From positions 73,303-137,302 of the forward strand of contig CACYHO010000001.1 of NCBI GenBank assembly GCA_902774285.1: 64,000 nt of DNA, written 5' to 3'. Below the pieces are notes generated by a model, which worked only from the letters and a program-made list of their open reading frames with translations, had not been told where the DNA came from and ran no database searches. The position numbers were made by a program, and so were the translations under genes. Origin of the DNA: an uncultured Pseudomonadota bacterium (GTDB lineage Bacteria > Pseudomonadota > Alphaproteobacteria > Rs-D84). Each line of letters begins with the position of its first letter. Within the stretch, counting starts at the first letter, position 1. Of this stretch, positions 1 through 56,766 are shown piece by piece.

Positions 1-2
1 GA

Positions 3-863
3 TCTATTCTTTCAACAATGATGGAAGGTTTGGCAATATTCCGTAACGCTGCGGTTCGTAACAGAACGTCTCATTCTGATTTTCATTTCAGTGACCTGCG
101 TGGAATGAAAGATCCAAGGGATGGCAAAATAAAACCTGTCAGCGTATATTTATCTATTAACATGGTGGACGCCCAGGCTTTAAACCCAATTACCGCTATC
201 TTTATCGAACTAATGTCCAGTTATTTGTTGGCACACAACACTGATCAAGTCGTAGACGGTATCAAAATGGGACCATATCCTGTATTATTCGTTCTTGATG
301 AAATGCCAAAGATGCAAAAATTGGATGCGGTTATCCAAGGACCAGACCTTGGGCGCGGTCAAAAAGTGTCTTATTTAATTATCGGTCAAGACATTCACCA
401 AATAAGCGAAAGATATGGTGCAGATGCTGCCGCTACTATTATTTCTACAACGGCCGCAAAAATAGTTATGCGTCAAAACGATCCTGAAACTGCCGAACGT
501 TTTTCAAAAATGATAGGGTTGAAAAAAACAAAAAAAATCGAAAAGAAAGACGACAAGGAAGTTGAGGTTCCAAAAGAAGAATATCTTTATTCGGAAATGG
601 ATATTATGAAATTAGAAAAAATGAAACAGATTGTTATTTACCAAGGTTGGTATCATCGTCCAATCGAAGCCGATCAAGAATGGCACTTCCTTAACAAAAC
701 ACCTGTTCAAAAGAAATTACATGAAAAAGTCCTTATGGGCGAAACATCCCCATTACCAGAATTTTTAATTCCATCACATCACGCGATTATGGGATACGAA
801 GGCGCACCACGTGTTCTAAACCCACAAACAAATGAAATAAAAATATTGGAACCTTTGCATTAA
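3..863 (+). CDS. TraG/VirD4-family type IV secretion coupling protein, C-terminal part (5' end off-window)
   Basis: The frame is open from nt 3, so the M at 18 is internal. PVLFVLDEMPKMQKL (Walker-B-like DE box), LIIGQDIHQISERYG and NDPETAERFSKMIG match the conserved T4CP core layout of VirD4/TraG. Confidence 0.7.
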   Translation, partial: SILSTMMEGLAIFRNAAVRNRTSHSDFHFSDLRGMKDPRDGKIKPVSVYLSINMVDAQALNPITAIFIELMSSYLLAHNTDQVVDGIKMGPYPVLFVLDEMPKMQKLDAVIQGPDLGRGQKVSYLIIGQDIHQISERYGADAAATIISTTAAKIVMRQNDPETAERFSKMIGLKKTKKIEKKDDKEVEVPKEEYLYSEMDIMKLEKMKQIVIYQGWYHRPIEADQEWHFLNKTPVQKKLHEKVLMGETSPLPEFLIPSHHAIMGYEGAPRVLNPQTNEIKILEPLH

Positions 864-881
864 GTGTTTTATAATCAGGGT

Positions 882-2084
882 ATGCGAAAAATTCTTTATC
901 TTGTATTTTGTCTGTTTTTATGTGGTTGTGCATCGACAATGCAATCGCATTTGAATGACATACAAAATAATTTTGCAGATTCAAATTTTCAAACAACAAC
1001 AGAAGATTTACCGTCCCAGCAAAACAATCTTGATTTATTAATAAACGGGAACGCCCTATTTCTTGATGGCAAATACAGCGAAAGCGATAAAACATTTGAA
1101 GAATTTAATAAAAGAAACCTAAGCGAAACATCGACATCTGTATCACGCGAAACAGCCGGTTTGTTGCTTGGTCAAAGCGTTAACTCATACAAACCATATA
1201 TGATGGATTCGCTGTTTGTATCTTATTATCAGATATGGGATTTGTTGGCCATGCATGAATGGTCTAATGCGCGTGTTGTTATAAATCAATCTTATCAGCG
1301 CCAACAAAATATGTCACGCGAATACAAAAAATTAATTGAAGAAAACAAAAAAGAAGTCAGCGAAAACAATCAAGTTGCAGAATTCATCGAAAAAAATTCA
1401 TCTGATTGGTTGGCGTTTCGTGATATTATGAATCCTGCATTGATGTATTTATCTGGAATCTATTTCCTTAATGATGGTGATTTTGATACCGCCATAACAT
1501 ATCTTAAACGTGCGAACGGTATGGTACCAGATAATAAATATATAAAACAAGACTTGGAAATGGCACAAAAAAGAATCAGACCAACAAACACACAATGGAA
1601 ATTTACAGAAACCGGTTTTGCACCACGACTTCGCGAATCGAACGCGTCTATTTATTTATTCGGCATCGGTCTTGTTCAATTTACTTTTTCTGATGCATAT
1701 CAAATGCCAAACTATACTATTCCAGAAAAATCAGAAATGTTGGCCAATGTGGACGCTATGTTCATGACAGAATATAATGAATATAAAACAAATGAAATAT
1801 TGCGCGCCTATGCGGCGGCCATTTCAAAAACTGCCGCCCAAACAATGATCTATAATTCTAATTCAGATTATGCGGCATTGTTTGGAATAATGTCTTCAAT
1901 TTATACCGCCGCATCTTCAAATGCAGATGTTCGCACATGGGCAACATTACCAAAATATATTTATGTTGAGCGCACAAAAAAATCTGATAACATCAAAACG
2001 AATGCTTTAGTTTATGTTCGTGAAATCAATGGAAAAATAACAGGAACAAAAACAATAGAATTAACAAAAGGAGAACACAAATGA
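882..2084 (+). CDS. Lipoprotein with helical/TPR-like repeats (uncharacterised family)
   Basis: The ORF-track start is GTG 864. The ATG at 882 gives MRKILYLVFCLFLCGCAS, a signal peptide plus lipobox. The stop overlaps the next start (ATGA at 2081). Confidence 0.6.
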   Translation: MRKILYLVFCLFLCGCASTMQSHLNDIQNNFADSNFQTTTEDLPSQQNNLDLLINGNALFLDGKYSESDKTFEEFNKRNLSETSTSVSRETAGLLLGQSVNSYKPYMMDSLFVSYYQIWDLLAMHEWSNARVVINQSYQRQQNMSREYKKLIEENKKEVSENNQVAEFIEKNSSDWLAFRDIMNPALMYLSGIYFLNDGDFDTAITYLKRANGMVPDNKYIKQDLEMAQKRIRPTNTQWKFTETGFAPRLRESNASIYLFGIGLVQFTFSDAYQMPNYTIPEKSEMLANVDAMFMTEYNEYKTNEILRAYAAAISKTAAQTMIYNSNSDYAALFGIMSSIYTAASSNADVRTWATLPKYIYVERTKKSDNIKTNALVYVREINGKITGTKTIELTKGEHK

Positions 2085-2686
2085 AACGAATGATACCTGT
2101 GGCACTTTGTCTTGCACTTGCTGCTTGTGGCGGAACACGTGTTGTCGATTTAAACGACAAAGATGAAGTTAACGCGATGCAACATGTTATGGAATTGGAA
2201 TATCGCGATTGGACAAACACTGCTGAAAAAATGACTAATTCTATGATTAACAGTGGCGCATTAAAATCAGAATCAAAACCGGTTATTGCAATGGGCAATA
2301 TTGTTAACGATACAACACAACGTTTTGATACCGATATCTTGACCAAGAAAATCAGAACAACCTTGTTGAATTCTGGCAAAGCACAAATCGCCACTAACTT
2401 CTCTGGCACAGATACAAATTCAGAAAAAATGCGTGCACAACGTGGTAATGACGAATATGCTCAAAAAACAATCGCCCAAAAAGGAACCTTAGTTGCACCA
2501 AACATGTCATTGTCCGGAAAAATGTTGCAAAGAAATTTGAAATTGGAATCCGGGTGGTTTTCATCTGTTGATACACGTGTAGAATATTATTTGCAATTAA
2601 CATTAACTGATTTGAAAACAGGTTTATCTGTTTGGGAAGACGAACAACCTATTATCAAAGAAGGTAAAGACGCACCAACTTGGTAA
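2081..2686 (+). CDS. LpoB-like (COG3417-type) lipoprotein, putative PBP activator
   Basis: Lipobox LALAACGG. PVIAMGNIVNDTT, LNSGKAQIA, APNMSLSGKM and YYLQLTLTDLKTGLSVWEDE follow the layout of the LpoB C-terminal domain. Confidence 0.5.
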   Translation: MKRMIPVALCLALAACGGTRVVDLNDKDEVNAMQHVMELEYRDWTNTAEKMTNSMINSGALKSESKPVIAMGNIVNDTTQRFDTDILTKKIRTTLLNSGKAQIATNFSGTDTNSEKMRAQRGNDEYAQKTIAQKGTLVAPNMSLSGKMLQRNLKLESGWFSSVDTRVEYYLQLTLTDLKTGLSVWEDEQPIIKEGKDAPTW

Positions 2687-2700
2687 TCATAAACAAAAGA

Positions 2701-2731
2701 AAAAAACACCGACAAAATGTCGGTGTTTTTT
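2701..2731. terminator. Bidirectional rho-independent terminator
   Basis: CACCGAC (2707-2713), loop AAAAT, GTCGGTG (2719-2725), with an A-run before and a T-run after. It lies between convergent genes. Confidence 0.7.
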
Positions 2732-3473
2732 ATAACCATGACGATTTTACAAACGAACCATCTTTGGAATTTATTCTCTGTTTCCCAACAGTTATAATTT
2801 GTTTACTATATTTTGGTTCAATTTGTTTTTTAACTTCAACTTTCCAATAAACTCCACCATTTTGTTTATTGATCGCATATAAATTATTATCTGTTCCAAC
2901 AACAAAAAGATAATCATCAACCATTATAAAATCTATACCAGTTGATATATTCAAACACCATACTTTATTACCATTGCTTGCATTTAATTTACAAAATGCG
3001 TCACCCAGACCACCCGCATAAACATACTTACTATCCAAACCAACATGCGCGACAATATCAACCATTGACGCACCGCCGGTTAAATTATTAGCACGAAAAA
3101 CATCTGTAGCCCAAACCTGTTTCTTGTTCGATGTATTTATTTTTACTATTTCACCTGTAGAAAGCCCCGTGTAAATAAAACTGCCGTCACATATTGGTGA
3201 TTGATTTGATTTAACAGCACTGTTTGTTGCAAAACCAGTCCAAACTTTCTGACCATCCAACCATATTGTATTTAACGCATCTTGTTTATACCCACAATTT
3301 GCATCACCATATATATTTGTCATATTATCCGACAATTGCGGTAATTCACGATTTTGAACAACAACATCGTTTGCATCAAAAATATCATTACGCACACCCG
3401 GCAATATCGGATCATGCTTTGAACACGAAGATATTGCAATCGCACACAATGAAAATATCGCTACTTTTTTCAT
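2730..3473 (-). CDS. bamB: Short PQQ-repeat beta-propeller lipoprotein, BamB-like
   Basis: Lipobox AISSCSK. Repeated x(I/L)Nxx(N/K)Gxx(V)W blades are present (VKINTSNKKQVWATDV, CKLNASNGNKVWCLNI, LYAINKQNGGVYWKVEV). It sits directly downstream of a YfgM-like gene, as in the yfgM-bamB arrangement. Confidence 0.6.
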   Translation of the reverse strand: MKKVAIFSLCAIAISSCSKHDPILPGVRNDIFDANDVVVQNRELPQLSDNMTNIYGDANCGYKQDALNTIWLDGQKVWTGFATNSAVKSNQSPICDGSFIYTGLSTGEIVKINTSNKKQVWATDVFRANNLTGGASMVDIVAHVGLDSKYVYAGGLGDAFCKLNASNGNKVWCLNISTGIDFIMVDDYLFVVGTDNNLYAINKQNGGVYWKVEVKKQIEPKYSKQIITVGKQRINSKDGSFVKSSWL

Positions 3474-3475
3474 AT

Positions 3476-4129
3476 TTATCTTAATGTTTGTGCTGTTGCA
3501 GAAATAGATGCGGGTGCATTTTTATCGCTTACAATTACATCCAATATCTTGTCTGCTTTTTCTTTTTCACCACTGGCAAGATATTTTTGTGCAACCATTA
3601 AACGCGATGTATAAAAGAAAGGTGATTTTTTTGTATCCATTGACGATACAAATTTTTCAAATTCATCCGCTTTCATTTTATCACCATTGATTGTAGCCAA
3701 GTGTAATTTTGCCAAATCTTTGAAATCACGGGTATGGCCTTTATTCGCCAAAGTTTCCAGTTTGTTAACATCTTTATCTATCACATAAGCCTGAAACAAT
3801 GCCAAATCTGATGTTGCCCCACCCTTGTCATGTGCCAAATTTGCCAAAGCATTTGCATCAATGTTGGCAATAGCACTTTCATAAACCGTCGCAGTTGCAA
3901 CTTTGGATGAATAATATATACGTGTTCCAATTTGAATCGCACTTACCAATATCATTATTCCCAAGACAGCCGCTGTTATATGACGCCAATATTTTTTCAA
4001 AAACTCTTGGGTTTTTTCATTATTTACATCTTCCCAGACTTCACGATAAAGAGCATCTTCCGCGTATTCTTCGCGTGTTTTCTTAACTGGTTGTTTAAGA
4101 TTCTTTTTTCTTTCTAAGATTGTGGTCAT
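3476..4129 (-). CDS. YfgM-like membrane-anchored TPR-like protein
   Basis: Charged N-terminus, a single TM helix (ITAAVLGIMILVSAIQIG) and a helical C-terminal domain. It lies immediately upstream of the BamB-like gene. Confidence 0.55.
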   Translation of the reverse strand: MTTILERKKNLKQPVKKTREEYAEDALYREVWEDVNNEKTQEFLKKYWRHITAAVLGIMILVSAIQIGTRIYYSSKVATATVYESAIANIDANALANLAHDKGGATSDLALFQAYVIDKDVNKLETLANKGHTRDFKDLAKLHLATINGDKMKADEFEKFVSSMDTKKSPFFYTSRLMVAQKYLASGEKEKADKILDVIVSDKNAPASISATAQTLR

Positions 4130-4144
4130 AATAAATCTCCTGTC

Positions 4145-4172
4145 TTGATAATTTGTATTTTATTGCTATACT
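4145..4172 (+). promoter_or_regulatory. Sigma70-type promoter candidate for rpoH
   Basis: TTGATA (4145-4150), 16-nt spacer, TATACT (4167-4172). Only 9 nt separate the -10 box from the ATG at 4182. Confidence 0.4.
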
Positions 4173-4181
4173 ATAAAAGTT

Positions 4182-5114
4182 ATGAGCAAGGAAATCAAGA
4201 CAACTTTACCAGCAACTAAAACAAATGCCCCTGTTCCTTTTGTTGGGGGTGCTGGTGACGATGTCAGTTTGTCCAAATACATCACAGAAATTCAAAAGTT
4301 CCCTATTTTGTCTGCCGAACAAGAATATGAATATGCCACAAAATGGGTCAAAGAGCACGACAATATTGCGGCTGAAAAATTGGTGGCATCACATTTGCGC
4401 CTTGTGGTATCTGTGGCATACGATTTCAAAAACTATGGGTTACCAGTATCCGATTTGATTGCCAGTGGTAATATGGGATTAATGCAGGCATTGCAAAAAT
4501 TTGACCCAGAAAAAGGCTTCCGTTTTTCAACTTATGCGATGTTTTGGATCAAAGCAGAAATATATGAAACAATTCTTAACAATTGGTCCATCGTCAAAAT
4601 GGGTAATTCTGCGAATCAGAAACGTGTTTTCTTTAATCTTACACGTGCAAAGCGCGCATTGGGCATAATGGACAATTCATTATCCGGCGAACAAACAAAA
4701 CAAATTGCGGAATATTTATCTGTTCCAGAAAACGACGTTGAACGCGTGGCCACACGTATGTCTGCACGCGATGTATCACTTAATTCGCCTCTTAATACAG
4801 ATTCTGATTCAAAAGACATCTTATCAAATATGGCCGATTCCCGTATTAATATTGAAGACGGTCTGGAACAACTGGAATTCAAACGCAAAGGTTATGAATT
4901 ATTAAAAAAGCATCTGGAAACACTGCCAGAACGCGATCGTGAAATTTTGCGTGCAAGACGCCTTTCTGATCCAGCGATGACCCTTGAAACGCTTTCACAA
5001 AAATATGGTATATCACGTGAACGTGTCCGCCAAATTGAAGAAAGGGCTTTTAATAAATTAAGAAATGCTATATTATCTGAATCAGAACCAAAGAAAATAA
5101 CAGGAACAAAATGA
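4182..5114 (+). CDS. rpoH: RNA polymerase sigma-32 (heat-shock) factor
   Basis: Sigma70 regions 2-4 are present, with the RpoH-box-like QKRVFFNLTRAKR, plus FRFSTYAMFWIKAEI and GISRERVRQIEERA. Confidence 0.93.
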   Translation: MSKEIKTTLPATKTNAPVPFVGGAGDDVSLSKYITEIQKFPILSAEQEYEYATKWVKEHDNIAAEKLVASHLRLVVSVAYDFKNYGLPVSDLIASGNMGLMQALQKFDPEKGFRFSTYAMFWIKAEIYETILNNWSIVKMGNSANQKRVFFNLTRAKRALGIMDNSLSGEQTKQIAEYLSVPENDVERVATRMSARDVSLNSPLNTDSDSKDILSNMADSRINIEDGLEQLEFKRKGYELLKKHLETLPERDREILRARRLSDPAMTLETLSQKYGISRERVRQIEERAFNKLRNAILSESEPKKITGTK

Positions 5115-10631: not shown

Positions 10632-11306
10632 ATGGAAAAACAAGAATTAAAAAATTTTGAATCACAAAATTTGCGAACTTTTGGGCGCAGACATGGTAAG
10701 AAGTTATCTAACCGCAAACAATGGCTTATGGATAATTTGTTGCCAGATATCGCACCAAAATCACAAAATTTTGGCAAAAAACCGCTTATTTTAGAAATAG
10801 GTTTTGGCAATGGCGAACATTTGCGCGACCTAGCGATACAAAATCCAGATTCAATTATTATTGGCGCAGAACCATTTGCAAACGGTGTTGCCGCCCTGCT
10901 TTCCGCTATTACAAACGAATCGGATAATACATTATTTGATGAATATAAAAACATTAGAGTTTGGCCAGACGATGTTCGTTTGATATTAGAAGACGACACA
11001 TTCAAAGATATCAAATTTGATGAAATTTGGGTTTTGCACCCTGACCCATGGCCAAAGGCAAGACACGAAAAACGTCGCCTGTTAAACCATAATTTTTTAA
11101 ATCTGTTGTCTAAATTTATGGATAAAAACAGCCAGATTATTATAGGTACAGACCATTGGGAATATTACGATTGGATTGTGGAACAATTAAAACAAACCAA
11201 TCTTGTTATAAAATCAACAGAATTAGATACTATACAGACCAGATATCAATTGAAAAACAAGGCCGGAACAACAAACCCAAAATATTTGATTTTATCAATT
11301 AATTAG
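10632..11306 (+). CDS. trmB: tRNA (guanine-N7)-methyltransferase
   Basis: LEIGFGNGEHL SAM-binding motif and HPDPWPKARHEKRRL, typical of TrmB. Confidence 0.85.
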   Translation: MEKQELKNFESQNLRTFGRRHGKKLSNRKQWLMDNLLPDIAPKSQNFGKKPLILEIGFGNGEHLRDLAIQNPDSIIIGAEPFANGVAALLSAITNESDNTLFDEYKNIRVWPDDVRLILEDDTFKDIKFDEIWVLHPDPWPKARHEKRRLLNHNFLNLLSKFMDKNSQIIIGTDHWEYYDWIVEQLKQTNLVIKSTELDTIQTRYQLKNKAGTTNPKYLILSIN

Positions 11307-11992
11307 TAATCAAGAAAAAATCTTAATTTGTCGTTTAATTCAGGGCGCAAACATTCTGTAAGTCGGATAACTTGATCTATCCTGTCAAAGTTATTCCCCA
11401 ATATAAAATGTAATTCACCGTCAAAATCAAAATGTTGCAAAAGCCCATAAATGCGACCAACAAAATCAGAACGATTGCCCATATCTTCATTCAAAGTAAG
11501 AGTTAAAGCATTTGCACGAATATCACGCAATTTTTGGAATATAAAATTAAGACTGTTGATGTCTATATCTTCTGTATCCATCGCAATACATAAATCATGT
11601 CCAAAAAACAAATCGTCCCGCACTATTTCTAATTTATTTATAAACTGTTCAAAATATTGCATTTTGATAAATATTTGAACCCCGTCCGCCCCAGATTTAC
11701 AGACGTTTGTTATTTTTGCACCCAATGCATACATGTCTTCATCTATATCATTAGATACAGGATTAAAATCATAACGTGTTAAAACCTTAACGTCTGTTTT
11801 TTCAAGATACATCCAAACATTAGCGACCATTTCTGCCGGCACAGATATTAAATGCACACCATTGTTAACAATATTGTCACACATTATTGCTAAATCATTG
11901 GTGTCTGCCATATTTTCGCACCAAACAGCAATTCTTTTGTCCGAATCAGAAAAAATTTCGTTTATCTCTATCATTTTATTCCAGTTTATCAT
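11303..11992 (-). CDS. Hypothetical cytoplasmic protein (possible degenerate DeoC-like TIM-barrel)
   Basis: 229-aa ORF. HLISVP...GADGVQIFI loosely parallels the DeoC layout, but Lys is absent at the positions I align to the Schiff-base lysines. The family call is weak. Confidence 0.45.
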   Translation of the reverse strand: MINWNKMIEINEIFSDSDKRIAVWCENMADTNDLAIMCDNIVNNGVHLISVPAEMVANVWMYLEKTDVKVLTRYDFNPVSNDIDEDMYALGAKITNVCKSGADGVQIFIKMQYFEQFINKLEIVRDDLFFGHDLCIAMDTEDIDINSLNFIFQKLRDIRANALTLTLNEDMGNRSDFVGRIYGLLQHFDFDGELHFILGNNFDRIDQVIRLTECLRPELNDKLRFFLDY

Positions 11993-12016
11993 AAAATATG
12001 ATAGAATAGAAACGAA

Positions 12017-12898
12017 ATGAAAAACAAATTAGAACATATTTTATTATCTGCACTTTTGGGGCTATCTGTTTTGCTAGGCTTGTCTTTTTGGTTAAATACA
12101 ATATTCAGTTTCAATTTATTTTGCCCTGCACATTGGGAAGAATTTGCAAAATTACAGGCTTCGCACACACCAATCACAACTGGTTTTTATGTGTCTTTTG
12201 CCGTTGCTATCTTTTTATTTGCAATTGGAATTTATTTGATATATCGCCCAACAACGCATCATGTTGTTACACAAACGCAAAAAGACGATATTGTTAGAGC
12301 GCCTGTTATTACCAACATCCATCAAGAACAGACAGAAAAAGAACAAATTGTTGTACAAACATTACCTGTAAGTCGTCCGCCGCGTTTAAATTTACCAAAT
12401 AATATGGCACAGATTGTTGCACAAAACAATCAACACAAAGAACCATCTCCAACCAAAAATCAACAGGACAAACCTTCAGAAAACCCTTATAATCCGATAG
12501 TATCAGAAATATTTGCAAGTGCAGGATATATTATAAAACCAAACCCAACCATTTCTGATTTTGTTCCAAATTTGTTTGCGATCGGTGCTAATGAAATAGT
12601 CTGGATTGGTGGCATAGATTGTGATGTTGAAAAAATTATGAATGCTGTCGAAAAACTACAATCTGTATTCCAAAGCACTTTGGAAGACATACCAATCAAT
12701 GTAAACGCGTTTGTTTTGGATACGATTAACCGATACGATTCTGAAAATTCATCTATGTTAATATTCAAATCAATCGATGAATTAAAAGAATTTGTTTCAG
12801 AACACCCTGCTGATAAAATAGCAGACGAAGAACAAGAAAGTTTTGATTCTTATTCTGAATATATTGATACAATAATACAATATATTAAAAACTTATAG
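12017..12898 (+). CDS. Membrane-anchored hypothetical protein (N-terminal TM helices, Q/P/N-rich linker, C-terminal globular domain)
   Basis: TM helices LLSALLGLSVLLGLSFWL and FYVSFAVAIFLFAIGIYLIY, then a low-complexity linker (QEQTEKEQ...NNQHKEPSPTKNQQDKPSENP), then a ~130-aa domain. It is the first gene of a tight operon. Confidence 0.6.
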   Translation: MKNKLEHILLSALLGLSVLLGLSFWLNTIFSFNLFCPAHWEEFAKLQASHTPITTGFYVSFAVAIFLFAIGIYLIYRPTTHHVVTQTQKDDIVRAPVITNIHQEQTEKEQIVVQTLPVSRPPRLNLPNNMAQIVAQNNQHKEPSPTKNQQDKPSENPYNPIVSEIFASAGYIIKPNPTISDFVPNLFAIGANEIVWIGGIDCDVEKIMNAVEKLQSVFQSTLEDIPINVNAFVLDTINRYDSENSSMLIFKSIDELKEFVSEHPADKIADEEQESFDSYSEYIDTIIQYIKNL

Positions 12899-12911
12899 GG
12901 GACATATAATA

Positions 12912-13418
12912 ATGCAATTAAACGAACATTCTGCAATAGAAAGACTTAGTATGCTGGGAATGGACGATTTGCCCGTAATTGCATATGAACCAAAAAAATG
13001 TTCTTTGGATAATGATTGGTTTAAAAAATATTCTGCATTACGTCATGAATTTTTATCATCGCTTACAGATTCAATTGAAGAAATAGCTTTTATGAATCTT
13101 TCTCAAGAAGATTTTATAAATCTAATTATGGGAAAATCTTTACCAGATAATGTATCTATAAGATTCAGAATACCTTTGCTTTGGGGTGGTGATTTAGATA
13201 TATCAAACATGTTTTTATGTTGGACATTTCCGCACTCTCATAATATGGATCGTTTCATAATAGAACAAAGTGATGCAAAAACAATTTATTTACCCCACCC
13301 AGAAAAAAAAGTATATATTACATCTCACACTGGCGGTGGTGGCGATGGTGGAAACGCAACATCGGACAGATTAAGTCAAATGGCTTTCAATGCAATATCA
13401 GGACGCGGAAACGAATAA
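12912..13418 (+). CDS. Degenerate HNH (beta-beta-alpha-Me)-like protein
   Basis: SD AGGGGA lies upstream. SIRFRIPLLWGGDLDISNMFLCWTFPHSHNMD aligns by eye with the HNH motif HHIIPLSxGGxDxxSNLxxLCxxCHxxxH, but FR replaces HH and the CxxC is missing. Confidence 0.55.
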   Translation: MQLNEHSAIERLSMLGMDDLPVIAYEPKKCSLDNDWFKKYSALRHEFLSSLTDSIEEIAFMNLSQEDFINLIMGKSLPDNVSIRFRIPLLWGGDLDISNMFLCWTFPHSHNMDRFIIEQSDAKTIYLPHPEKKVYITSHTGGGGDGGNATSDRLSQMAFNAISGRGNE

Positions 13419-13419
13419 A

Positions 13420-13854
13420 ATGAAAAAAGAAGAATTTTTATCTTTGATAAAATCACGTGGGGCAACAATTTTTGCCCGTGGCAATTTAACAGATATAAGT
13501 ATTGCGAACACAAATTTGCAAAATATGCGTGCCGCAATGTTACCTTCTTTTCTACAAGATTTTTACACAACTTGCTTCGGCGCATCTTTGGGATCTGCAT
13601 GTGTATTTGGACCAACAGAAATAGATCGTGGCACCAAATACCCATTACCAGATATTGCAAAAATTAACAAAGATATTGTCGGTAATAAAAATCTTTTTGG
13701 TAAAACAGTTTTTGGAAGAAACGACTTGTTTTGGTTTGCATTTGATACATATGGTAATTGTTTTATGTTGGACAATTTAACATTATCTGTTTTAAGAAAA
13801 TACGACGATCCATATCGCGCAATGCTTGATTGCTTAATTGTTGGGAAAATATAA
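13420..13854 (+). CDS. SMI1/KNR4 (SUKH)-like protein, possible immunity-type partner
   Basis: The ATG at 13420 is 1 nt after the upstream stop. LPSFLQDFYTTCFGASLGSACVFG and FGRNDLFWFAFDTYGNCFMLD resemble the SUKH pattern. The call is tentative. Confidence 0.45.
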   Translation: MKKEEFLSLIKSRGATIFARGNLTDISIANTNLQNMRAAMLPSFLQDFYTTCFGASLGSACVFGPTEIDRGTKYPLPDIAKINKDIVGNKNLFGKTVFGRNDLFWFAFDTYGNCFMLDNLTLSVLRKYDDPYRAMLDCLIVGKI

Positions 13855-13855
13855 A

Positions 13856-14068
13856 ATGCATAAAATATCAGTATCTTTATCTGGACACCAAACCAGTATA
13901 TCATTGGAAAAAGAATTTTGCGATGTGTTGCAACACATTGCAAAAATACGCAATATATCAATTGCTTCTATTATAAAAAACATTGATGAAAATCGCGATC
14001 CAAAATCTAATCTTTCTTCTGAAATAAGGATATGGATATTGAAGCAAATATTGAAAACATCAAAATAA
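13856..14068 (+). CDS. Ribbon-helix-helix (RHH_4-type) protein
   Basis: The ATG at 13856 is 1 nt after the upstream stop. ISVSLSGHQTSISLEKEFCDVLQHIA...NLSSEIRIWIL matches the alphaproteobacterial RHH_4 pattern (S-V-x-L-x-G-H-x-T-S-x-S-L-E ... NLSSAIR). Confidence 0.65.
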   Translation: MHKISVSLSGHQTSISLEKEFCDVLQHIAKIRNISIASIIKNIDENRDPKSNLSSEIRIWILKQILKTSK

Positions 14069-16010
14069 ATATCATCCATAAATCACGTCCCAATATTCTG
14101 TATGGCGTATCATGTGCGCCCCATACAAAACCGTCCAAAGAACCAGTTTCCCCAGCCGGTATAGTCGATATAATATTTCCATCTGCCCCAATAAATGCAC
14201 TTATACCAGAATAGTTAGATCGAACAACTGGAACGCCTGATTCAATAGCATATCTGCGAACCATATCAAGATGCTGATATATTCCTGGTGTTAAACCAAA
14301 CCAAGTATCATTTGTTATATTGATAATGGCATCTGGCGTCGTTCCTGTTGGAATCAAAGAATCAGTAAATATAATTTCATAACAAATCGCCGGGGCAAAA
14401 GTAAAATCACCCTTGTTTGTATTTATTGTTATTAATTCTTTACCATTGCCTCGACTTAATTGACCTGGGGTTGGTATAATATCACCAAACGGTCTGTATT
14501 CACCAAATGGAACCAAATGAGATTTACTATATAAATGTTTAACAACACCTGTCTTATCAGCAATGACCATCGAATTATATAAATTTCCACCACTATAAGA
14601 GTTTGTTCCCATAATAACATTTGTATTTAATACACGCGACAAAGGAAAACTCTTATCAACAACAGTATATGGATATGCTGTTTCTGGGTACACAATTAAA
14701 TCTGGGGATTCGCTTTTATCTTCTGTTGCCCAAACAAACAAATCACGTATTTTTTGTTTTGCTATATTTTGTGCTTCTTCTTTTGATGTCGGCATCTTGT
14801 ATACGGCAGATTTTGCCGGTTGCACAATTCTTATTAACGGTGCCTTGTGCATATTATCAGATAAAATCATATTGTGATATCCGGCAACACAACCAATTAA
14901 AAACAGCACAATGTACAAACCAAAAACAAACCAATTTGATTTTTGATTTTTACGAACTAATTCAACAAAAGCAGCGATCAATCCAATTATAACAAAACTT
15001 AATCCCATCGCACCCCACAAAGACATTGAATTAACAACCATTGGTATATTCATTGTTATGTTTGCAATTGGATTCCACGGAAAACCAGTTAAAAACCATT
15101 CGCGTCCCCATAAAACAAGAGTCCAAGCACACGCAAACAAAATCGCCCTTTGCGCAGGATTCCTTGAAACATAACGAACAACAGCAAATGGTAAAGAAAG
15201 TATCGCACCACATAATAAACCTATTCCGATCAGTGCTGGTAATGTCCATATTGCGAATTGTGCAGCAAGTTCTGGAATCACATATATAGAATTTAAAACC
15301 CACCAGAACATCGCGATACCATAACAAGCACCAAAAGGGAACGCAAATAAATAAGATTTCCAAAAACTGATATGATTTGTTTGTTTGGTGGTTAAGGCAT
15401 ACATTGCACCAATACCAAATAAAGATAATACCCATAAATTAAATGGTGCAAAACCTAACGATGTTATAACACCTAAAATCGCAGCCGTTATATACCACCA
15501 AAAACTGTTTTCACGAATTTTTATAGACCTTAATTTATTGATGAATTTACAAGATCCACAAGATAAATCACATGCGCAAACTTCATCAATATAAGGATCT
15601 TTATATCCCAACTTTTTTAATATTTTTATTTCTTTATCTTCCATAACTTTAGCATCTTTGTCCTTAATATGATCATATCCTTGCAAATGTAACATTCCAT
15701 GAACAATCATATGCGCCGTATGTTCTTCAACAGAAATACCGGCAACTTTTGCTTCGCGTTTAACAGTATCAAGTGATATAAAAATATCACCCAGCAAAAC
15801 ATCATCGCCTAATTCAAAAGATAAAACATTTGTCGGCTTATCAATACCACGATATTGTTTATTTAATTTATGAATTTGTTTATCATCAATCAAAGTAATT
15901 GAAACTTCAGCGTTTTTGTGGATTGGTAACACAGCAGCATTTGCGATTTTTTCAAAATCTATTTTATATTTTTTCCATGCTTTATCTTCTGTATTTACAT
16001 AAACCTGCAT
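14007..16010 (-). CDS. ybeY-lnt: In-frame fusion of YbeY endoribonuclease (N-terminal ~140 aa) and apolipoprotein N-acyltransferase Lnt (C-terminal ~500 aa)
   Basis: HMIVHGMLHLQGYDH zinc motif and NVLSFE (YbeY), then multi-TM plus CN-hydrolase domain motifs (YPETAYP, YSKSHLVPFGEY, ICYEIIF; Lnt). There is no stop and no in-frame ATG/GTG/TTG between the domains. Confidence 0.85.
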   Translation of the reverse strand: MQVYVNTEDKAWKKYKIDFEKIANAAVLPIHKNAEVSITLIDDKQIHKLNKQYRGIDKPTNVLSFELGDDVLLGDIFISLDTVKREAKVAGISVEEHTAHMIVHGMLHLQGYDHIKDKDAKVMEDKEIKILKKLGYKDPYIDEVCACDLSCGSCKFINKLRSIKIRENSFWWYITAAILGVITSLGFAPFNLWVLSLFGIGAMYALTTKQTNHISFWKSYLFAFPFGACYGIAMFWWVLNSIYVIPELAAQFAIWTLPALIGIGLLCGAILSLPFAVVRYVSRNPAQRAILFACAWTLVLWGREWFLTGFPWNPIANITMNIPMVVNSMSLWGAMGLSFVIIGLIAAFVELVRKNQKSNWFVFGLYIVLFLIGCVAGYHNMILSDNMHKAPLIRIVQPAKSAVYKMPTSKEEAQNIAKQKIRDLFVWATEDKSESPDLIVYPETAYPYTVVDKSFPLSRVLNTNVIMGTNSYSGGNLYNSMVIADKTGVVKHLYSKSHLVPFGEYRPFGDIIPTPGQLSRGNGKELITINTNKGDFTFAPAICYEIIFTDSLIPTGTTPDAIINITNDTWFGLTPGIYQHLDMVRRYAIESGVPVVRSNYSGISAFIGADGNIISTIPAGETGSLDGFVWGAHDTPYRILGRDLWMIFILMFSIFASISISLFQKKD

Positions 16011-51976: not shown

Positions 51977-52000
51977 ACCGCCCGATTGGGCGGTTTTTTT
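51977..52000. terminator. Bidirectional rho-independent terminator
   Basis: ACCGCCC (51977-51983), loop GATT, GGGCGGT (51988-51994), with an A-run before and T7 after. Confidence 0.8.
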
Positions 52001-53557
52001 ACTCTTTTCTGTCTGGATATTTTCCATCGATAAGATTCTTGCGAACAATATGATGTTTTACCTTTTGTGTACTGGTCATTGGTAAATCTTCTGTTGTCAT
52101 CGCAAAATGGGTCACCCATTTATAAGATGCAACCTTTTTATTTTGTTCGGCAATTTCTTTTGCCAACTTATCTATGGTCATATCTTTATCAACACTGAAC
52201 ACACCATAGGCAACTGTTTTATCGCCAACCTTGTGTTCAAATACTGCGACATTTTTTACACCTGGGATTTCAATGAATAATCCTTCCAATTCGTCAGGAT
52301 AAACATTTTTACCACTGTCCAAAACAATCACTTGTTTTTTACGTCCGGCAAAATGCAATTCGCCATTTTTATCCATGTACATCATATCGCCTGTGTTAAA
52401 CCAACCGTCTTGATCAAAGACTTCTGCATTTACTTCGTCATTATTCAAATAACCATTGAATACCTGGTGTCCACGAAGCCATAACACACCAACGCCATTT
52501 TCATCTTTATCACGAATTTGACATTCATTATTAGATGTTGGTGCACCAATTGAATACGCCAATCTTTTATTTGTTGGTTTTGAAATACAGATTGGTCCAA
52601 CAGTTTCTGTCAAACCATAACCCTGGATAAATGCCATACCCAATGATTCATAGAAATTTTCTACTTCTGGTTTTGTTGCAGCACCGCCAGCAATCAATAA
52701 TTTAGCACGTCCACCAAAAACACTTAAAATTGGTTCTTGGACTTTGCGAACGAAAAATTCAAGTCCCATATCTTTCAATGTTTTTTGGTTTCTTAAAATA
52801 AATGATGCAACGCGCCATTTACCTTGTTCTTTCATTGTTGTAACAATTTTGTTACGGAACAATTCCCAAACACGTGGCACAGCCGGAATAACATGTGGTT
52901 GGAATTTTTTGAAATCGTCCAAAATATATTTCGGATTAACTGTTGGTTGCAAAACCAATGATGCACCATAATGAACAGTTGCCAAAATACCAATCGCAAA
53001 ACCAAAGATGTGATAAAGTGGCAAAAATCCATACATAACATCACCAGAATGGAAATAATCGCACATTCTGTTAAATTAAAATGTGTTAATGGTACAACCT
53101 TTGGTGTTCCTGTTGAACCAGACGTGAACGACATTGTCGCAACGTCTGTTGATTCAGAAGGGAAAGGTCTTAAATCATAATCAATATCACCATCTTTCTT
53201 TGTTATATCATAAAACTTGAATTGTTTTGTTTTATAAAAGAAAGAAGGTTCTGCGCAAACAAATTTACACCCAGCAATTTCGCACATTTTATCGTATTCA
53301 ATCGGTGTAAGATTTGTATCCAACATTAATGCTGTTGCACCCAAATACCATATAGCAAACAATGTTAATGGAAACTGAGGCAAATTGTGTGATAACACAC
53401 CAATAATATCGCCATGTTTCACACCTGCTTTGTTAAGTGTTGATGCGCGTGCACGTACCTGTTCCAAGAATTCGGAATAAGTAACATTTTCACGGACCAG
53501 GAATAAATTTTCTGGCCATTGATTAACTGCATTTTCTAACTTTTGATACATATTCAT
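51999..53557 (-). pseudogene. Frameshifted long-chain acyl-CoA synthetase paralogue (copy 3)
   Basis: The N-terminal ORF (53557 down to about 53070, ...SFTSGSTGTPKVVPLTHFNLTE) and the C-terminal ORF (53066-51999, CDYFHSGDVMYGFLPLYH...) are collinear with the two intact neighbours but in different frames. The segment between the NL and MYGF landmarks is also about 7 aa shorter. Confidence 0.65.
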
Positions 53558-53581
53558 GTTATACCTACCTTTGTATCTTTA

Positions 53582-55162
53582 TTATTCATGTCTTAAAGTG
53601 TATTTACCATCAATCAACCATTGACGAACAACATGGTGTTTGATTTTTTGTGTGCTTGTAACTGGCAAATCATCAGTTGTCATCGCAAAGTGTGTTACCC
53701 ATTTATAAGAAGCAACTTTTTTATTTGCATTTGCAACTGCGGCTGCCAATTTTTCCATTGTCATATCTGATTCAACACTGAATACACCATATGCAACAGT
53801 TTTACCATTTACTTCGTGTTCAAACACAGCGACACTTTTTACACCTGGAATTTCAATAAATAAACCTTCTAGTTCATCAGGATAAACATTTTTACCAGAA
53901 TCTAAAACAATCACTTGTTTTTTACGTCCGGCAAAATGCAATTCGCCATTTTTATCCATTGATACCAAATCGCCAGTACAGAACCAACCTTCTTTATCAA
54001 AGGCTTCTTTGTTTGCTTCCTCATTATTCAAATAACCACCAAAGATTTGTTTACCCTTGACCCATAACATACCGATACCATTTTCATCTTTGTTACGAAT
54101 TTGAATTTCTGTATCACCCATTGGTGCACCAAAGGCATACGCAACACGTTTTTTCAATGGTCTTGAACAACAGATTGGTCCAACAGTTTCTGTCATACCA
54201 TAACCTTGAACAAAAGCCATTCCCAGTTGTGTATAGAATTTTTCAACTTCTGGTTTTGTAGCAGCACCACCGGCAACCAATAATCTTGCACGTCCACCGA
54301 ACACAGAACGAATTTGGTTTAATACTTTGTTAACCAATTTACCCATTCCAAGTGCGCGTAATAATTTTTGGTTATTCATAATAAACGATACCAGCCACCA
54401 TTTCTTTTTAGCACGGACACCTTCAATAATTTTCTTGCGGAAAATTTCCCATAACTTTGGCACAGCAGGTATAACCTGTGGTTTATATTGTGCAAAGTCT
54501 GCCATAATCGCATTTGGATTAATGGTAGATTGTAATAATATACCCATACCAAAATGAAGTGGTGCCAAGAAACCAACCGCAAAACCGAACACATGATAAA
54601 GCGGCAAGAAAGCATAGAACATTTCACCTGGCTTTAACCATTGATTCAAATATTCCAAATTATCAGAACAAGAAACCAAATTAAAGTGTGTTAATGGCAC
54701 AACCTTTGGTGTTCCTGTTGATCCAGATGTGAAAGATAATGTTGCAATATCTTCATCTTTTAATGGATACGGTTTCAAAGATTTATCTGTATTTGTATCT
54801 TCTGTTTCTATATCAAAAAATTTGAAATTTTTTGTTTCAAAGAAAAAAGATTTTTCTGCACATACAAATTTAGCATCTGTAATTTTTGCCATATTGTCAT
54901 ATTCTTCGGAAGTCAAATTTGTATCCAACAATAAAACTTTTGCGCCCAAATACCAGACAGCAAAAAGTGTCATTGGAAACTGTGGTAAATTATGTGATAA
55001 CACACCAATAACATCGCCAGGTTTAACACCCAATTTATGCAAAGTGGTTGCACGTGCTTTTACTAATTCCAGAAATTCTTTAAATGTTACATTTTCACGA
55101 ACCAAAAATATAGTTTCTGGATTTCTTTCTACATTTTTTTCTAACAATTGATACATATTCAT
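53582..55162 (-). CDS. AMP-forming long-chain acyl-CoA synthetase (FAA1/COG1022-like), copy 2
   Basis: SFTSGSTGTPKVV (AMP-binding core), GYGMTE, TGDLV, GRKKQVIVLDSGKNVYPDELE. Confidence 0.85.
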   Translation of the reverse strand: MNMYQLLEKNVERNPETIFLVRENVTFKEFLELVKARATTLHKLGVKPGDVIGVLSHNLPQFPMTLFAVWYLGAKVLLLDTNLTSEEYDNMAKITDAKFVCAEKSFFFETKNFKFFDIETEDTNTDKSLKPYPLKDEDIATLSFTSGSTGTPKVVPLTHFNLVSCSDNLEYLNQWLKPGEMFYAFLPLYHVFGFAVGFLAPLHFGMGILLQSTINPNAIMADFAQYKPQVIPAVPKLWEIFRKKIIEGVRAKKKWWLVSFIMNNQKLLRALGMGKLVNKVLNQIRSVFGGRARLLVAGGAATKPEVEKFYTQLGMAFVQGYGMTETVGPICCSRPLKKRVAYAFGAPMGDTEIQIRNKDENGIGMLWVKGKQIFGGYLNNEEANKEAFDKEGWFCTGDLVSMDKNGELHFAGRKKQVIVLDSGKNVYPDELEGLFIEIPGVKSVAVFEHEVNGKTVAYGVFSVESDMTMEKLAAAVANANKKVASYKWVTHFAMTTDDLPVTSTQKIKHHVVRQWLIDGKYTLRHE

Positions 55163-55173
55163 AATTCTGTTCC

Positions 55174-56766
55174 TTACCTTAATATATTTTCCGTATTATT
55201 TGGATATTTGCCATCTATTAAATTCTGACGAACCATATGATGCTTTACCTTTTGCGTACTTGTTACAGGTAAATCTTCCGTTGTCATGGCAAAATGTGTC
55301 ACCCATTTATAAGGTGCAACCTTGCGATTTGCCAGCGCAATCTGCGCCCCCAATTTAACAAGTGTTGTCCCTTTTTCAACCTGTAATACGGCATAAGTTA
55401 CTGTTTTATCTTTGATTTTATGTTCAAACACAGCAACATTTTTAACACCATCCATTTCCATGAATAACGCTTCCAGTTCGTCTGGATAAACATTTTTACC
55501 ACTGTCCAAAACAATTACTTGTTTTTTACGTCCGGCAAAATGATATTGTTTATACTTATCCAAATAAACAAGGTCCCCCGTATTAAACCAACCATCTTTA
55601 TCAAAAGATTCATCATTGGCTTCTTTGTTATTCAAATAACCTTTGAAGATATTTGGACCACGAACCCACAATGTTCCAATACCTTTTTCATCGGCATCAC
55701 GAATAGTGCATTCTGAACAACCAATTGGTGTCCCAAACGCAAATGGAACACGATGTTTTGCTGGACGTGAACAACAGAAAGGCCCAACCGTTTCAGTCAT
55801 GCCATAGCCCTGAACAAAAGTAATACCCAAAGATTCATAGAATTTTTCAACCTCTGGCTTTGTAGCGGCACCACCAGCAATCATAAGATTTACACGACCA
55901 CCAAAAATATCACGCAAAGGTTTTTGGACTTTCTTTACCAGTTTTGATAAACCAATCGCATTTAAAAACTTTTGATGTTTAAGCACGAAAGATACAATCC
56001 ACCACATATGTTTTTCTTTGGCGCCTTCTATAATCTTGTTACGAAAAACTTCGTAAAGACGTGGCACTGCAGGAATACAATGCGGCTTATATACTTTGAA
56101 ATCTTCCAAAATATTGCGCGGATTAATTGTAGGCTGTAACAATATTCCCATATGGAAATACATTGGTGCCAAAATACCAGCTGCAAAACCAAAAATATGA
56201 TAAAGCGGTAAAAATCCGTACATTATTTCATTTTTGTGAATCCAATCGCCCATATCTGCATAATAATCTGAAGAATTTTTCAAATTACCATGTGTTAATG
56301 GAACAACCTTTGGATTGCCAGTAGATCCAGATGTGAAAGATAGTGTTGCAATATCTTCTGAATCCAATTCAGCAGGTTTTAATTTTGCATCTGCTTTTTC
56401 ATCTGCTGATTGTATATCAAAGAATTTGAAACCTTTTGCATCATAGAAAAATGATTTTTCAGCGCATACAAATTTACACTTTACCAATTTGGTCATATTG
56501 TCATATTCAAAAGGTGTTAAATTTGTATCCAACAAAAGAACCGTTCCACCAAGGTACCATATTGCGAAAAGAGTCAATGGAAATTCTGGTATATTATGCG
56601 CCAACAAACCAACAACATCACCTGATTTAACCCCGGCCTTGTGTAATGTAGTTGCCCGCGCATGAATTAATTTCAAAGCTTCCTTGAATGTGATTTTTTC
56701 GCGTACCAGATAGAAAGCATTTGGCGATTCTTTCGCCACTTGCTTAAACACTTGATACATATTCAT
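55174..56766 (-). CDS. AMP-forming long-chain acyl-CoA synthetase (FAA1/COG1022-like), copy 1
   Basis: SFTSGSTGNPKVV, GYGMTE, TGDLV, GRKKQVIVLDSGKNVYPDELE. It lies 11 nt upstream of copy 2. Confidence 0.85.
   Translation of the reverse strand: MNMYQVFKQVAKESPNAFYLVREKITFKEALKLIHARATTLHKAGVKSGDVVGLLAHNIPEFPLTLFAIWYLGGTVLLLDTNLTPFEYDNMTKLVKCKFVCAEKSFFYDAKGFKFFDIQSADEKADAKLKPAELDSEDIATLSFTSGSTGNPKVVPLTHGNLKNSSDYYADMGDWIHKNEIMYGFLPLYHIFGFAAGILAPMYFHMGILLQPTINPRNILEDFKVYKPHCIPAVPRLYEVFRNKIIEGAKEKHMWWIVSFVLKHQKFLNAIGLSKLVKKVQKPLRDIFGGRVNLMIAGGAATKPEVEKFYESLGITFVQGYGMTETVGPFCCSRPAKHRVPFAFGTPIGCSECTIRDADEKGIGTLWVRGPNIFKGYLNNKEANDESFDKDGWFNTGDLVYLDKYKQYHFAGRKKQVIVLDSGKNVYPDELEALFMEMDGVKNVAVFEHKIKDKTVTYAVLQVEKGTTLVKLGAQIALANRKVAPYKWVTHFAMTTEDLPVTSTQKVKHHMVRQNLIDGKYPNNTENILR

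Follow-up and report, generated by a model that had tools for sequence, protein, structure and literature searches.

Introduction

What does an operon that sets a nuclease-like gene beside an immunity-like one do among the housekeeping genes of a bacterium with a strongly reduced genome? The question is raised by four genes, P1 to P4, at positions 12017-14068 of a 64,000-nucleotide stretch of DNA (the window), which comes from a Candidatus Enterousia-like bacterium of the order Rs-D84. Enterousia, a member of this order, has a genome of less than 1 Mb and is a predicted obligate symbiont or parasite (PMC12306168). The original prediction, made from the letters alone, had read the four genes as resembling a toxin-immunity, addiction or defence-type module. 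The comparisons reported here retain that idea as a matter of ancestry, through homology to the proteins YhhZ and YrhA, but not as a matter of present function. The interpretation we favour, at about an even chance, is that P1 to P4 are the accessory set of an orphan coupling ATPase (T4CP) of the VirD4 family, built on a domesticated toxin-immunity pair.

The operon contains the following genes.
P1, 12017-12898, plus strand, 293 aa: inner-membrane protein with a Q/P/N-rich linker and a degenerate NERD-like C-terminal domain
P2, 12912-13418, plus strand, 168 aa: degenerate HNH-derived protein, homologue of the YhhZ C-terminal domain
P3, 13420-13854, plus strand, 144 aa: SUKH fold, YrhA lineage
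P4, 13856-14068, plus strand, 70 aa: RHH_4 ribbon-helix-helix (RHH) protein, putative DNA-binding regulator or accessory factor

Open reading frame (ORF) coordinates bear out the operon as first described, with spacings of 13, 1 and 1 nt between consecutive genes and all four on one strand. The P3 start was placed at 13420 (the ORF is open from 13390) because most homologues are 144 aa long and start at the Met encoded there. No terminator-like site is present in 11200-14400, within or around the operon, and promoter-like sites in this interval are rarer than in shuffled sequences.

The P2-P3 pair

Window P2 has no match in Pfam, NCBIfam or PADLOC, and finds no support of its own in the PDB or with Foldseek. 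An exhaustive HMMER search for the family yielded only 44 representative clusters, and a Pfam scan of 22 family members matched no HNH model, the sole hit being a weak one to Col-Pyo_DNase (E = 0.29). An AlphaFold2 (AF2) model calculated from a shallow alignment of close homologues has two strands (82-85 and 100-104) followed by a helix (108-118); it reached a predicted local distance difference test score (pLDDT) of only 62.7, and Foldseek returned nothing from the PDB below E = 1. The family alignment displays the core P-x-N...P...GG.....N...P...F...Q and a family-specific conserved C-terminal tail (GG-x3-4-D-R/K), with no conserved His. PDB profile matches to XPB and to a cytochrome b5, the latter driven by a His-tag, were discarded as chance. 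One further PDB profile alignment, itself insignificant, coincided with the HNH motif of a group II intron maturase.

The HNH link surfaced only when a T4CP-linked relative of P2 was searched against annotated plasmids. With this longer relative (L171_371, from one of the loci described below), tblastn found 458 plasmid records (E = 2e-9), 433 of them conjugative and most of the IncHI2 type. The gene matched on IncHI2 plasmids is annotated as an "HNH endonuclease" and is directly followed by one for a "YrhA family protein"; its aligned segment, VHHKIPLDDGGTNAIDNLVLIQNS, passes the Pfam HNH model with 27.1 bits (gathering score 21.4). A hidden Markov model (HMM) of the P2 family gives 62 bits with Escherichia coli YhhZ and 62.7 bits with the IncHI2 HNH protein, while window P2 alone reaches just E = 4.5e-5 by blastp. 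The region common to the P2 family, YhhZ and the IncHI2 protein spans approximately 130 residues around a ...VHHK.P...GG.....NLVLI..PYH... core, and does not include the C-terminal tail, which is absent from both YhhZ and the IncHI2 protein. The assignment of P2 as a degenerate HNH protein, made originally from its motif, is upheld by these matches.

YhhZ combines an N-terminal Hcp1 domain (TIGR03344, E = 4e-34) with a C-terminal HNH domain, and E. coli K-12 carries the pair as yhhZ-yrhA, with yrhA interrupted by IS1E. Hcp-fused HNH DNases of the Hcp-ET1 type are experimentally defined type VI secretion system toxins with cognate immunity proteins (PMC6099711). The domain architecture of YhhZ suggests that it is a toxin of this type.

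The VHHK motif of YhhZ and the IncHI2 protein reads VH[ILVM]K in long P2 forms and IRFR in the window, where R84 and F85 occupy the His positions. The second His, which we take to be the general base by analogy with colicin E9 H103 and Cas9 H840, is replaced by Leu, Ile, Val, Met or Phe in all 22 representatives. In the subgroup to which window P2 belongs, the other His positions are lost too, and the last His is not conserved. P2 is accordingly predicted to be catalytically degenerate, as the general-base His is gone and, in the window lineage, so are all the other His ligands; the original suspicion of a catalytically altered nuclease was well placed. Since the catalytic His is missing from every family member, P2 should not kill as a DNase. 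Window P2 also has no N-terminal trafficking domain.

The AF2 model of P3 is of high quality (pLDDT 90.6), and its four best Foldseek matches are all SUKH/SMI1-KNR4 proteins (3d5p, 2prv (YobK), 2icg and 2pag; probability 0.98-1.00, TM-score 0.6-0.65). Foldseek, proposed at the outset as a check, thereby supports the SUKH assignment of P3 and offers nothing for P2. Against the NCBIfam YrhA model (NF038335), window P3 scores 21.7 bits (E = 1.5e-4), below the curated cut-off of 55 bits, whereas P3 orthologues encoded beside T4CPs score 64.1, 60.9, 53.8 and 47.4 bits. The P3 family HMM in turn scores K-12 YrhA at 40 bits and IncHI2 YrhA at 36.8 bits. On these scores, window P3 is best described as a divergent YrhA relative and not as a scored member of the family. 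Its gene lies directly 3' of the P2 gene in every locus examined, and P3 is probably the cognate YrhA-type SUKH partner of P2, which it would bind by analogy with toxin-immunity pairs. With P2 matching YhhZ and the IncHI2 HNH protein, and P3 matching YrhA, the pair descends from a real toxin-immunity cassette.

Conservation and selection

Close homologues of P2 and P3 fall into 471 and 644 clusters, respectively, all from gut or rumen metagenomes and metagenome-assembled genomes labelled Candidatus Enterousia or "Alphaproteobacteria bacterium". When close homologues were used to scan GTDB, with each species represented by one genome, only Rs-D84 genomes came up. The scan returned 76 loci, and P1-P2-P3-P4 are collinear in 73 of them, the remaining three being interrupted by contig ends; the co-occurrence of the four genes in other genomes, named originally as a point to check, is therefore observed. 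Synteny extends to the wider stretch gltX-trmB-g229-P1-P2-P3-P4-ybeY/lnt-rarA across Rs-D84 genomes.

Median identities to the window proteins are 61% for P2, 58% for P3 and 66% for P4, comparable figures for the neighbouring genes being 65% for trmB, 72% for gltX and 57% for ybeY-lnt. The faster-evolving genes are g229 (39%) and P1 (34%), the latter being the fastest of the four. Ratios of nonsynonymous to synonymous substitution rates (dN/dS), calculated against eight relatives, are 0.05-0.14 for P2, 0.06-0.14 for P3, 0.15-0.22 for P1 and 0.07-0.11 for trmB, values that are approximate because dS is near saturation. They indicate strong purifying selection on these genes, P2 and P3 being constrained much as trmB is.

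Thirty larger ORFs scanned elsewhere in the window are mostly housekeeping genes with Pfam assignments (including FtsK, MutL, SecDF, BipA, SerRS, RecA, a Xer-type recombinase, LptF/G and glycosyltransferases), and three have no Pfam match. PADLOC holds no family for any of the five proteins P1 to P4 and g229, up to E = 1, and window P2 has no match among annotated plasmids. The locus is core chromosomal sequence and not an island, and in Rs-D84 (Enterousia-like) Alphaproteobacteria the operon is fixed in the chromosome and passed on vertically.

These observations bear directly on the explanation offered first, a cassette still active in toxin-immunity, addiction or anti-phage defence, with P2 as its toxin, P3 conferring immunity and P4 regulating in the manner of an antitoxin. 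We regard it as very improbable. A core locus, syntenic in 73 of 76 species with genomes of less than 1 Mb, evolving at a dN/dS of approximately 0.1 and devoid of the polymorphism of toxin cassettes, is hard to reconcile with such a role, as are the substitution of the catalytic His by R84 and F85 in the window, the loss of the second His in 22 of 22 representatives, the missing trafficking domain and the lack of a PADLOC or plasmid match. What does speak for an active cassette is the order of a toxin-domain gene followed by a SUKH gene, the true homology to the YhhZ/YrhA polymorphic-toxin pair, the presence of an RHH protein, and the example of the Hcp-ET1 proteins as HNH DNases with cognate immunity proteins (PMC6099711). 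It is only as ancestry that this part of the original prediction survives.

Linkage to a coupling ATPase

In seven independent loci from other uncultured Alphaproteobacteria (L077, L078/79, L081, L082, L167, L170 and L171), a T4CP gene is directly followed by a P2-like and then a P3-like gene. In L077, L078/79, L081, L082 and L167 the T4CPs are 705-784 aa long (PF02534, PF10412, PF12696) and the P3-like proteins 143-148 aa. Wherever the contig reaches far enough, the T4CP gene is immediately preceded by one to three P1-like genes, whose products have two transmembrane segments, a linker of low complexity and a domain resembling NERD. Overlaps between stop and start codons are frequent within these P1-T4CP-P2-P3 clusters. 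The association was also recovered in reverse: two T4CP homologues picked blind to their neighbours (L170 and L171) both proved to be accompanied by P1-like, P2-like and P3-like genes. An RHH_4 gene is first in the L082 module and last in the modules of the window, L080 and L083; L080 and L083 share the window's order P1-P2-P3-RHH_4, with the T4CP not in the operon.

The window itself contains part of such a T4CP gene at its left edge.
T4CP fragment (VirD4/TraG family), 3-863, plus strand: last 286 codons of a gene cut by the window edge

This fragment, on the same strand as P1 and 11.15 kb upstream of it, is 49% identical to the L082 T4CP by tblastn. A full orthologous gene is present in L085, encoding 755 aa with PF02534, PF10412 and PF12696; the orthologous T4CP shares 44-47% identity along its entire length with the T4CPs flanked by P1, P2 and P3, and its Walker A and B motifs are intact. 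A metagenome scan with the T4CP recovered 80 Rs-D84-like loci at 61-92% identity. The clade to which it belongs is large and highly conserved in uncultured Alphaproteobacteria, with 65-81% identity among many members. Its assignment to the T4CP family rests on Pfam and NCBIfam, and the clade scores far under every curated NCBIfam cut-off for VirD4/TraG equivalogs. Searches of the PDB with the clade, as a profile and as a single sequence, found no relative among solved structures, for all its clear Pfam T4SS-DNA_transf matches, and the branch is not known to have an experimental structure.

The position of P2-P3 immediately after a T4CP in the seven loci could also mean that P2 is a translocated effector of a type IV secretion system (T4SS), read by the T4CP through its C-terminal tail, with P3 as immunity protein or chaperone and P1 and P4 as accessory or regulatory proteins. 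Signals for type IV secretion are typically C-terminal, and the P2 family has an extra conserved tail at this end, which YhhZ and the IncHI2 protein do not have. The toxin-immunity ancestry of the pair fits this proposal, a TrbL/VirB6-like cluster is found beside the L171 module, and an HNH-superfamily nuclease effector with its own immunity protein and bound by VirD4 provides a precedent (PMC11253643). Even so, we consider an effector role unlikely: the general-base His is gone in every member of the P2 family, P2 is present in one copy and changes no faster than housekeeping genes, unlike typical effectors, and T4SS channel genes are not seen among the window ORFs scanned or in most loci.

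The L171 cluster (1-4966, minus strand) comprises three paralogous polytopic membrane proteins, divergent from the module. One of them passes the Pfam TrbL/VirB6 model with 27 bits (gathering score 25.9), and L083_547 (L083 1790-3433) weakly resembles the L171 TrbL/VirB6-like protein. L171 is the only locus with TrbL/VirB6-like paralogues near the T4CP. The polytopic proteins of L171 and L083 hint that some lineages have a T4SS that is scattered or divergent.

Several observations point away from a working link between the operon and the T4CP, and must be set against the accessory-set interpretation. The T4CP gene is outside the operon in the window and in all Rs-D84 loci; it is approximately 11 kb off in close relatives, and in more distant Rs-D84 loci the linkage breaks and the spacing varies. 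L083 and L169 have P2-P3 with no T4CP in the stretch of contig seen, L169 having P2-P3 only. VirB channel genes were found neither among the 30 large window ORFs scanned nor beside the Rs-D84 T4CP or most other T4CPs, and searches of the window for VirB6-like and pilin-like proteins found nothing. PDB profile searches with the P1, P2 and P3 families returned no DotM, DotN or IcmSW, nor any other solved structure. To these must be added the poor P2 model (pLDDT 62.7), with no Foldseek match, and the sub-threshold NERD similarity of P1 relatives, which is absent for window P1 itself (see below).

The same facts suggest a further alternative, in which the operon is independent of the T4CP in Rs-D84 and encodes a complex with a housekeeping or regulatory role, associated with DNA or with the envelope, the T4CP linkage elsewhere being historical. 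P4 would then be a regulator, P1 a membrane sensor and the dead-nuclease/SUKH pair a DNA-binding switch. The unlinked T4CP of all Rs-D84 loci, its unconserved spacing in the distant ones, the pairs of L083 and L169 and the placement of the operon among housekeeping genes, from trmB to ybeY-lnt, are all as this alternative would have them. It does not account for the retention of the T4CP in 80 Rs-D84-like metagenome loci despite extreme genome reduction, nor for the fact that seven loci repeat the order P1-T4CP-P2-P3 with stop and start codons that overlap, and we give it a low probability, on a par with that of the effector proposal.

A few other genes accompany the T4CPs and P2-P3 pairs. In Rs-D84, the orphan T4CP gene is followed by one for a 400-406-aa lipoprotein and then by one for an LpoB-family lipoprotein (window 3-2686; L085 6516-10606). 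This order is found in 28 of the 45 metagenome loci with enough downstream sequence, and outlasts other breaks in synteny. In L082 and L167, a gene upstream of and divergent from P1-T4CP-P2-P3 encodes a protein of 177-178 aa that is Cys-rich at its N-terminus and ends in a J domain (Pfam DnaJ; L082 315-851, L167 5736-6269), the two copies being 44% identical. Several loci also encode, no more than a few kb away from P2-P3, proteins whose N-termini resemble those of type IV pilins (for example GRSMVEMLGVLAIIG).
Pilin-like proteins near P2-P3: L082 6156-7016; L169 5945-9818; L170 4784-5524; L167 3999-4523
Pilin-like proteins are also weakly matched near some Rs-D84 T4CPs. Their proximity to P2-P3 may reflect chance or a functional link.

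P1 and P4

Hydropathy and composition of P1 agree with the membrane-anchored protein with a Q/P/N-rich linker that was first described. Two hydrophobic segments (approximately 4-36 and 51-79) are followed by the linker (approximately 85-165), and a W..F....HW loop motif is conserved. By the positive-inside rule, the C-terminal domain is probably cytoplasmic. The family alignment was built with the P1-like proteins of L080, L083, L082, L077, L167, L170 and L171. Window P1 has no match in Pfam or NCBIfam; NERD (PF08378) is detected below threshold in three longer relatives (E = 0.007, 0.016 and 0.037; 15-17 bits against a cut-off of 22.1). No conserved ExK or other catalytic motif is visible in the alignment, and window P1 has deletions in the NERD-like domain.

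P4 matches Pfam RHH_4 (PF13467) over residues 3-64 with E = 1.1e-19 and 70.7 bits (cut-off 25), leaving little doubt about the RHH fold proposed for it. RHH proteins such as TrwA, TraM and PcfF are T4CP accessory factors.

Proposed role of the module

On the reading of P1 to P4 as a T4CP accessory set, an HNH DNase toxin domain, as found in YhhZ and the IncHI2 protein, would have been disarmed and have gained a C-terminal tail to become P2. P3 would bind P2 as an immunity protein binds its toxin, and the P2-P3 complex and P1 might both dock onto the membrane-bound T4CP hexamer. The inactive nuclease-derived domains, together with the RHH protein, could then hold a substrate, most likely DNA, without cleaving it, and the T4CP hexamer would act on the substrate so bound. 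P4 may also autoregulate the operon. That VirD4 can recognise a nuclease effector which has a cognate immunity protein is established elsewhere (PMC11253643).

It is tempting to go further and to propose an undescribed stand-alone translocation module, fixed in the chromosomes of uncultured Alphaproteobacteria that include Rs-D84, consisting of a VirD4-derived ATPase detached from VirB and the dead HNH toxin, YrhA, NERD-like and RHH proteins as its obligatory partners, and handling DNA or protein exchanged with partner cells. Such exchanges would be vital to these bacteria, given their metabolic dependence. We put this forward tentatively, as a possibility somewhat on the doubtful side. Literature on orphan VirD4, on SUKH proteins with VirD4 and on Rs-D84 with type IV secretion gave no description of such a module, in agreement with the original statement that the operon matches no described system. 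HNH/YrhA toxin-immunity pairs, RHH proteins and T4CPs are all of known kinds; new are their combination, the domestication of the pair, and the conserved chromosomal VirD4 detached from a VirB operon.

If the accessory-set interpretation is true, the operon provides a clear example of a toxin-immunity pair disarmed and fixed as a core part of another machine. It would also delimit a VirD4-type ATPase clade that is new, widespread and highly conserved, and whose members have unrecognised partners outside the canonical T4SS operon. The host bacteria, Alphaproteobacteria of gut and rumen with less than 1 Mb of genome, are predicted to live off other cells; in such organisms, a conserved translocation-type module would therefore be a concrete candidate for interaction with the partner. 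The uncharacterised HNH-YrhA pair of IncHI2 plasmids and yhhZ-yrhA of E. coli would gain a functional context as well.

Comparison with known systems

P2-P3 and the YhhZ-YrhA and IncHI2 HNH-YrhA pairs are homologous two-gene cassettes with the same gene order. P2 differs from YhhZ in lacking Hcp or any other N-terminal delivery region, in the loss of the catalytic His and in its extra C-terminal tail. Unlike both pairs, P2-P3 is chromosomal, core and slow-evolving, not borne on an island or plasmid, and has P1 and an RHH_4 gene as companions, to which relatives add a T4CP.

On the IncHI2 plasmid NZ_CP102375.1 (81-103 kb), the HNH-YrhA pair is inside the transfer region, beside trhG and trhH. 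It is located approximately 14-20 kb from the genes for mobI, a MobH relaxase, a TraD coupling protein and a NERD-domain protein. A clinical resistance plasmid thus repeats the four domain types in the vicinity of a coupling protein. The IncHI2 NERD protein gives no match to the P1 HMM.

The VirD4-dependent bactericidal effector-immunity pairs of Xanthomonadales T4SSs (X-Tfe/X-Tfi, and the TfdA nuclease of Stenotrophomonas maltophilia) resemble P2-P3 in that an HNH-superfamily nuclease-derived protein and a partner gene are tied to a VirD4-type protein, and in both cases a C-terminal region may mediate recognition (PMC11253643). In contrast to X-Tfe, no XVIPCD is detected in P2, the nuclease appears to be dead, and there is one conserved copy instead of a variable effector arsenal. 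VirB channel genes are, moreover, not seen near P2-P3 in most loci.

Legionella DotL works with the adaptors DotM, DotN, IcmS and IcmW. By analogy with this set and with the relaxosome proteins TrwA, TraM and PcfF, P1 to P4 could be viewed as a membrane-anchored partner, small soluble adaptors and an RHH protein arranged around an ATPase. Membership of a Dot/Icm-like coupling complex was considered and dropped, given the outcome of the PDB profile searches with P1, P2 and P3. Unlike the DotL sets, the candidate adaptors of this module go back to a toxin-immunity pair and a fold resembling NERD; unlike relaxosomes, they are accompanied by no relaxase or oriT identified at these loci.

The closest T4CPs from cultured organisms are encoded on Sphingosinicella p1 and an Erythrobacter aureus plasmid, with 33-35% identity over 85-89% of the length. 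On the Sphingomonadales plasmids, the T4CP gene ends a virB8-virB9-virB10-virB11-virD4 operon and has no P1, P2 or P3 neighbours. The T4CP studied here differs from those of canonical virB-virD4 operons in being detached from VirB and, in relatives, flanked by P1 and P2-P3.

Neighbouring genes and other observations

The genes bordering the operon are as follows.
g229, 11303-11992, minus strand, 229 aa: divergent, 24 nt from P1; conserved neighbour whose membership of the module is uncertain
trmB, 10632-11306: beyond g229 as seen from P1
ybeY-lnt fusion gene, 14007-16010, minus strand, convergent: Pfam YbeY, LNT_N and CN_hydrolase

The original placement of the operon between trmB and ybeY-lnt holds on the downstream side, where ybeY-lnt adjoins and is overlapped at its 3' end by P4 (62 nt), but not on the upstream side, where the immediate neighbour is g229 and not trmB. 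The overlap is the probable cause of the depressed dS of P4. g229 has no match in Pfam, NCBIfam or PADLOC; it borders the module in genomes of Rs-D84 and also, at 24% identity (E = 2e-12), in the distant L080. The 24-nt spacer between g229 and P1 leaves hardly any space for two promoters.

In the fusion gene, ybeY (rRNA maturation RNase) and lnt (apolipoprotein N-acyltransferase) form a single 667-aa ORF, which is kept across Rs-D84 genomes and in L080. Elsewhere in the window (51999-56766, minus strand), a tandem pair of paralogous genes encodes full-length AMP-binding enzymes of 526 and 530 aa. A third copy of 355 aa, without the N-terminal half of the domain, is next in the array.

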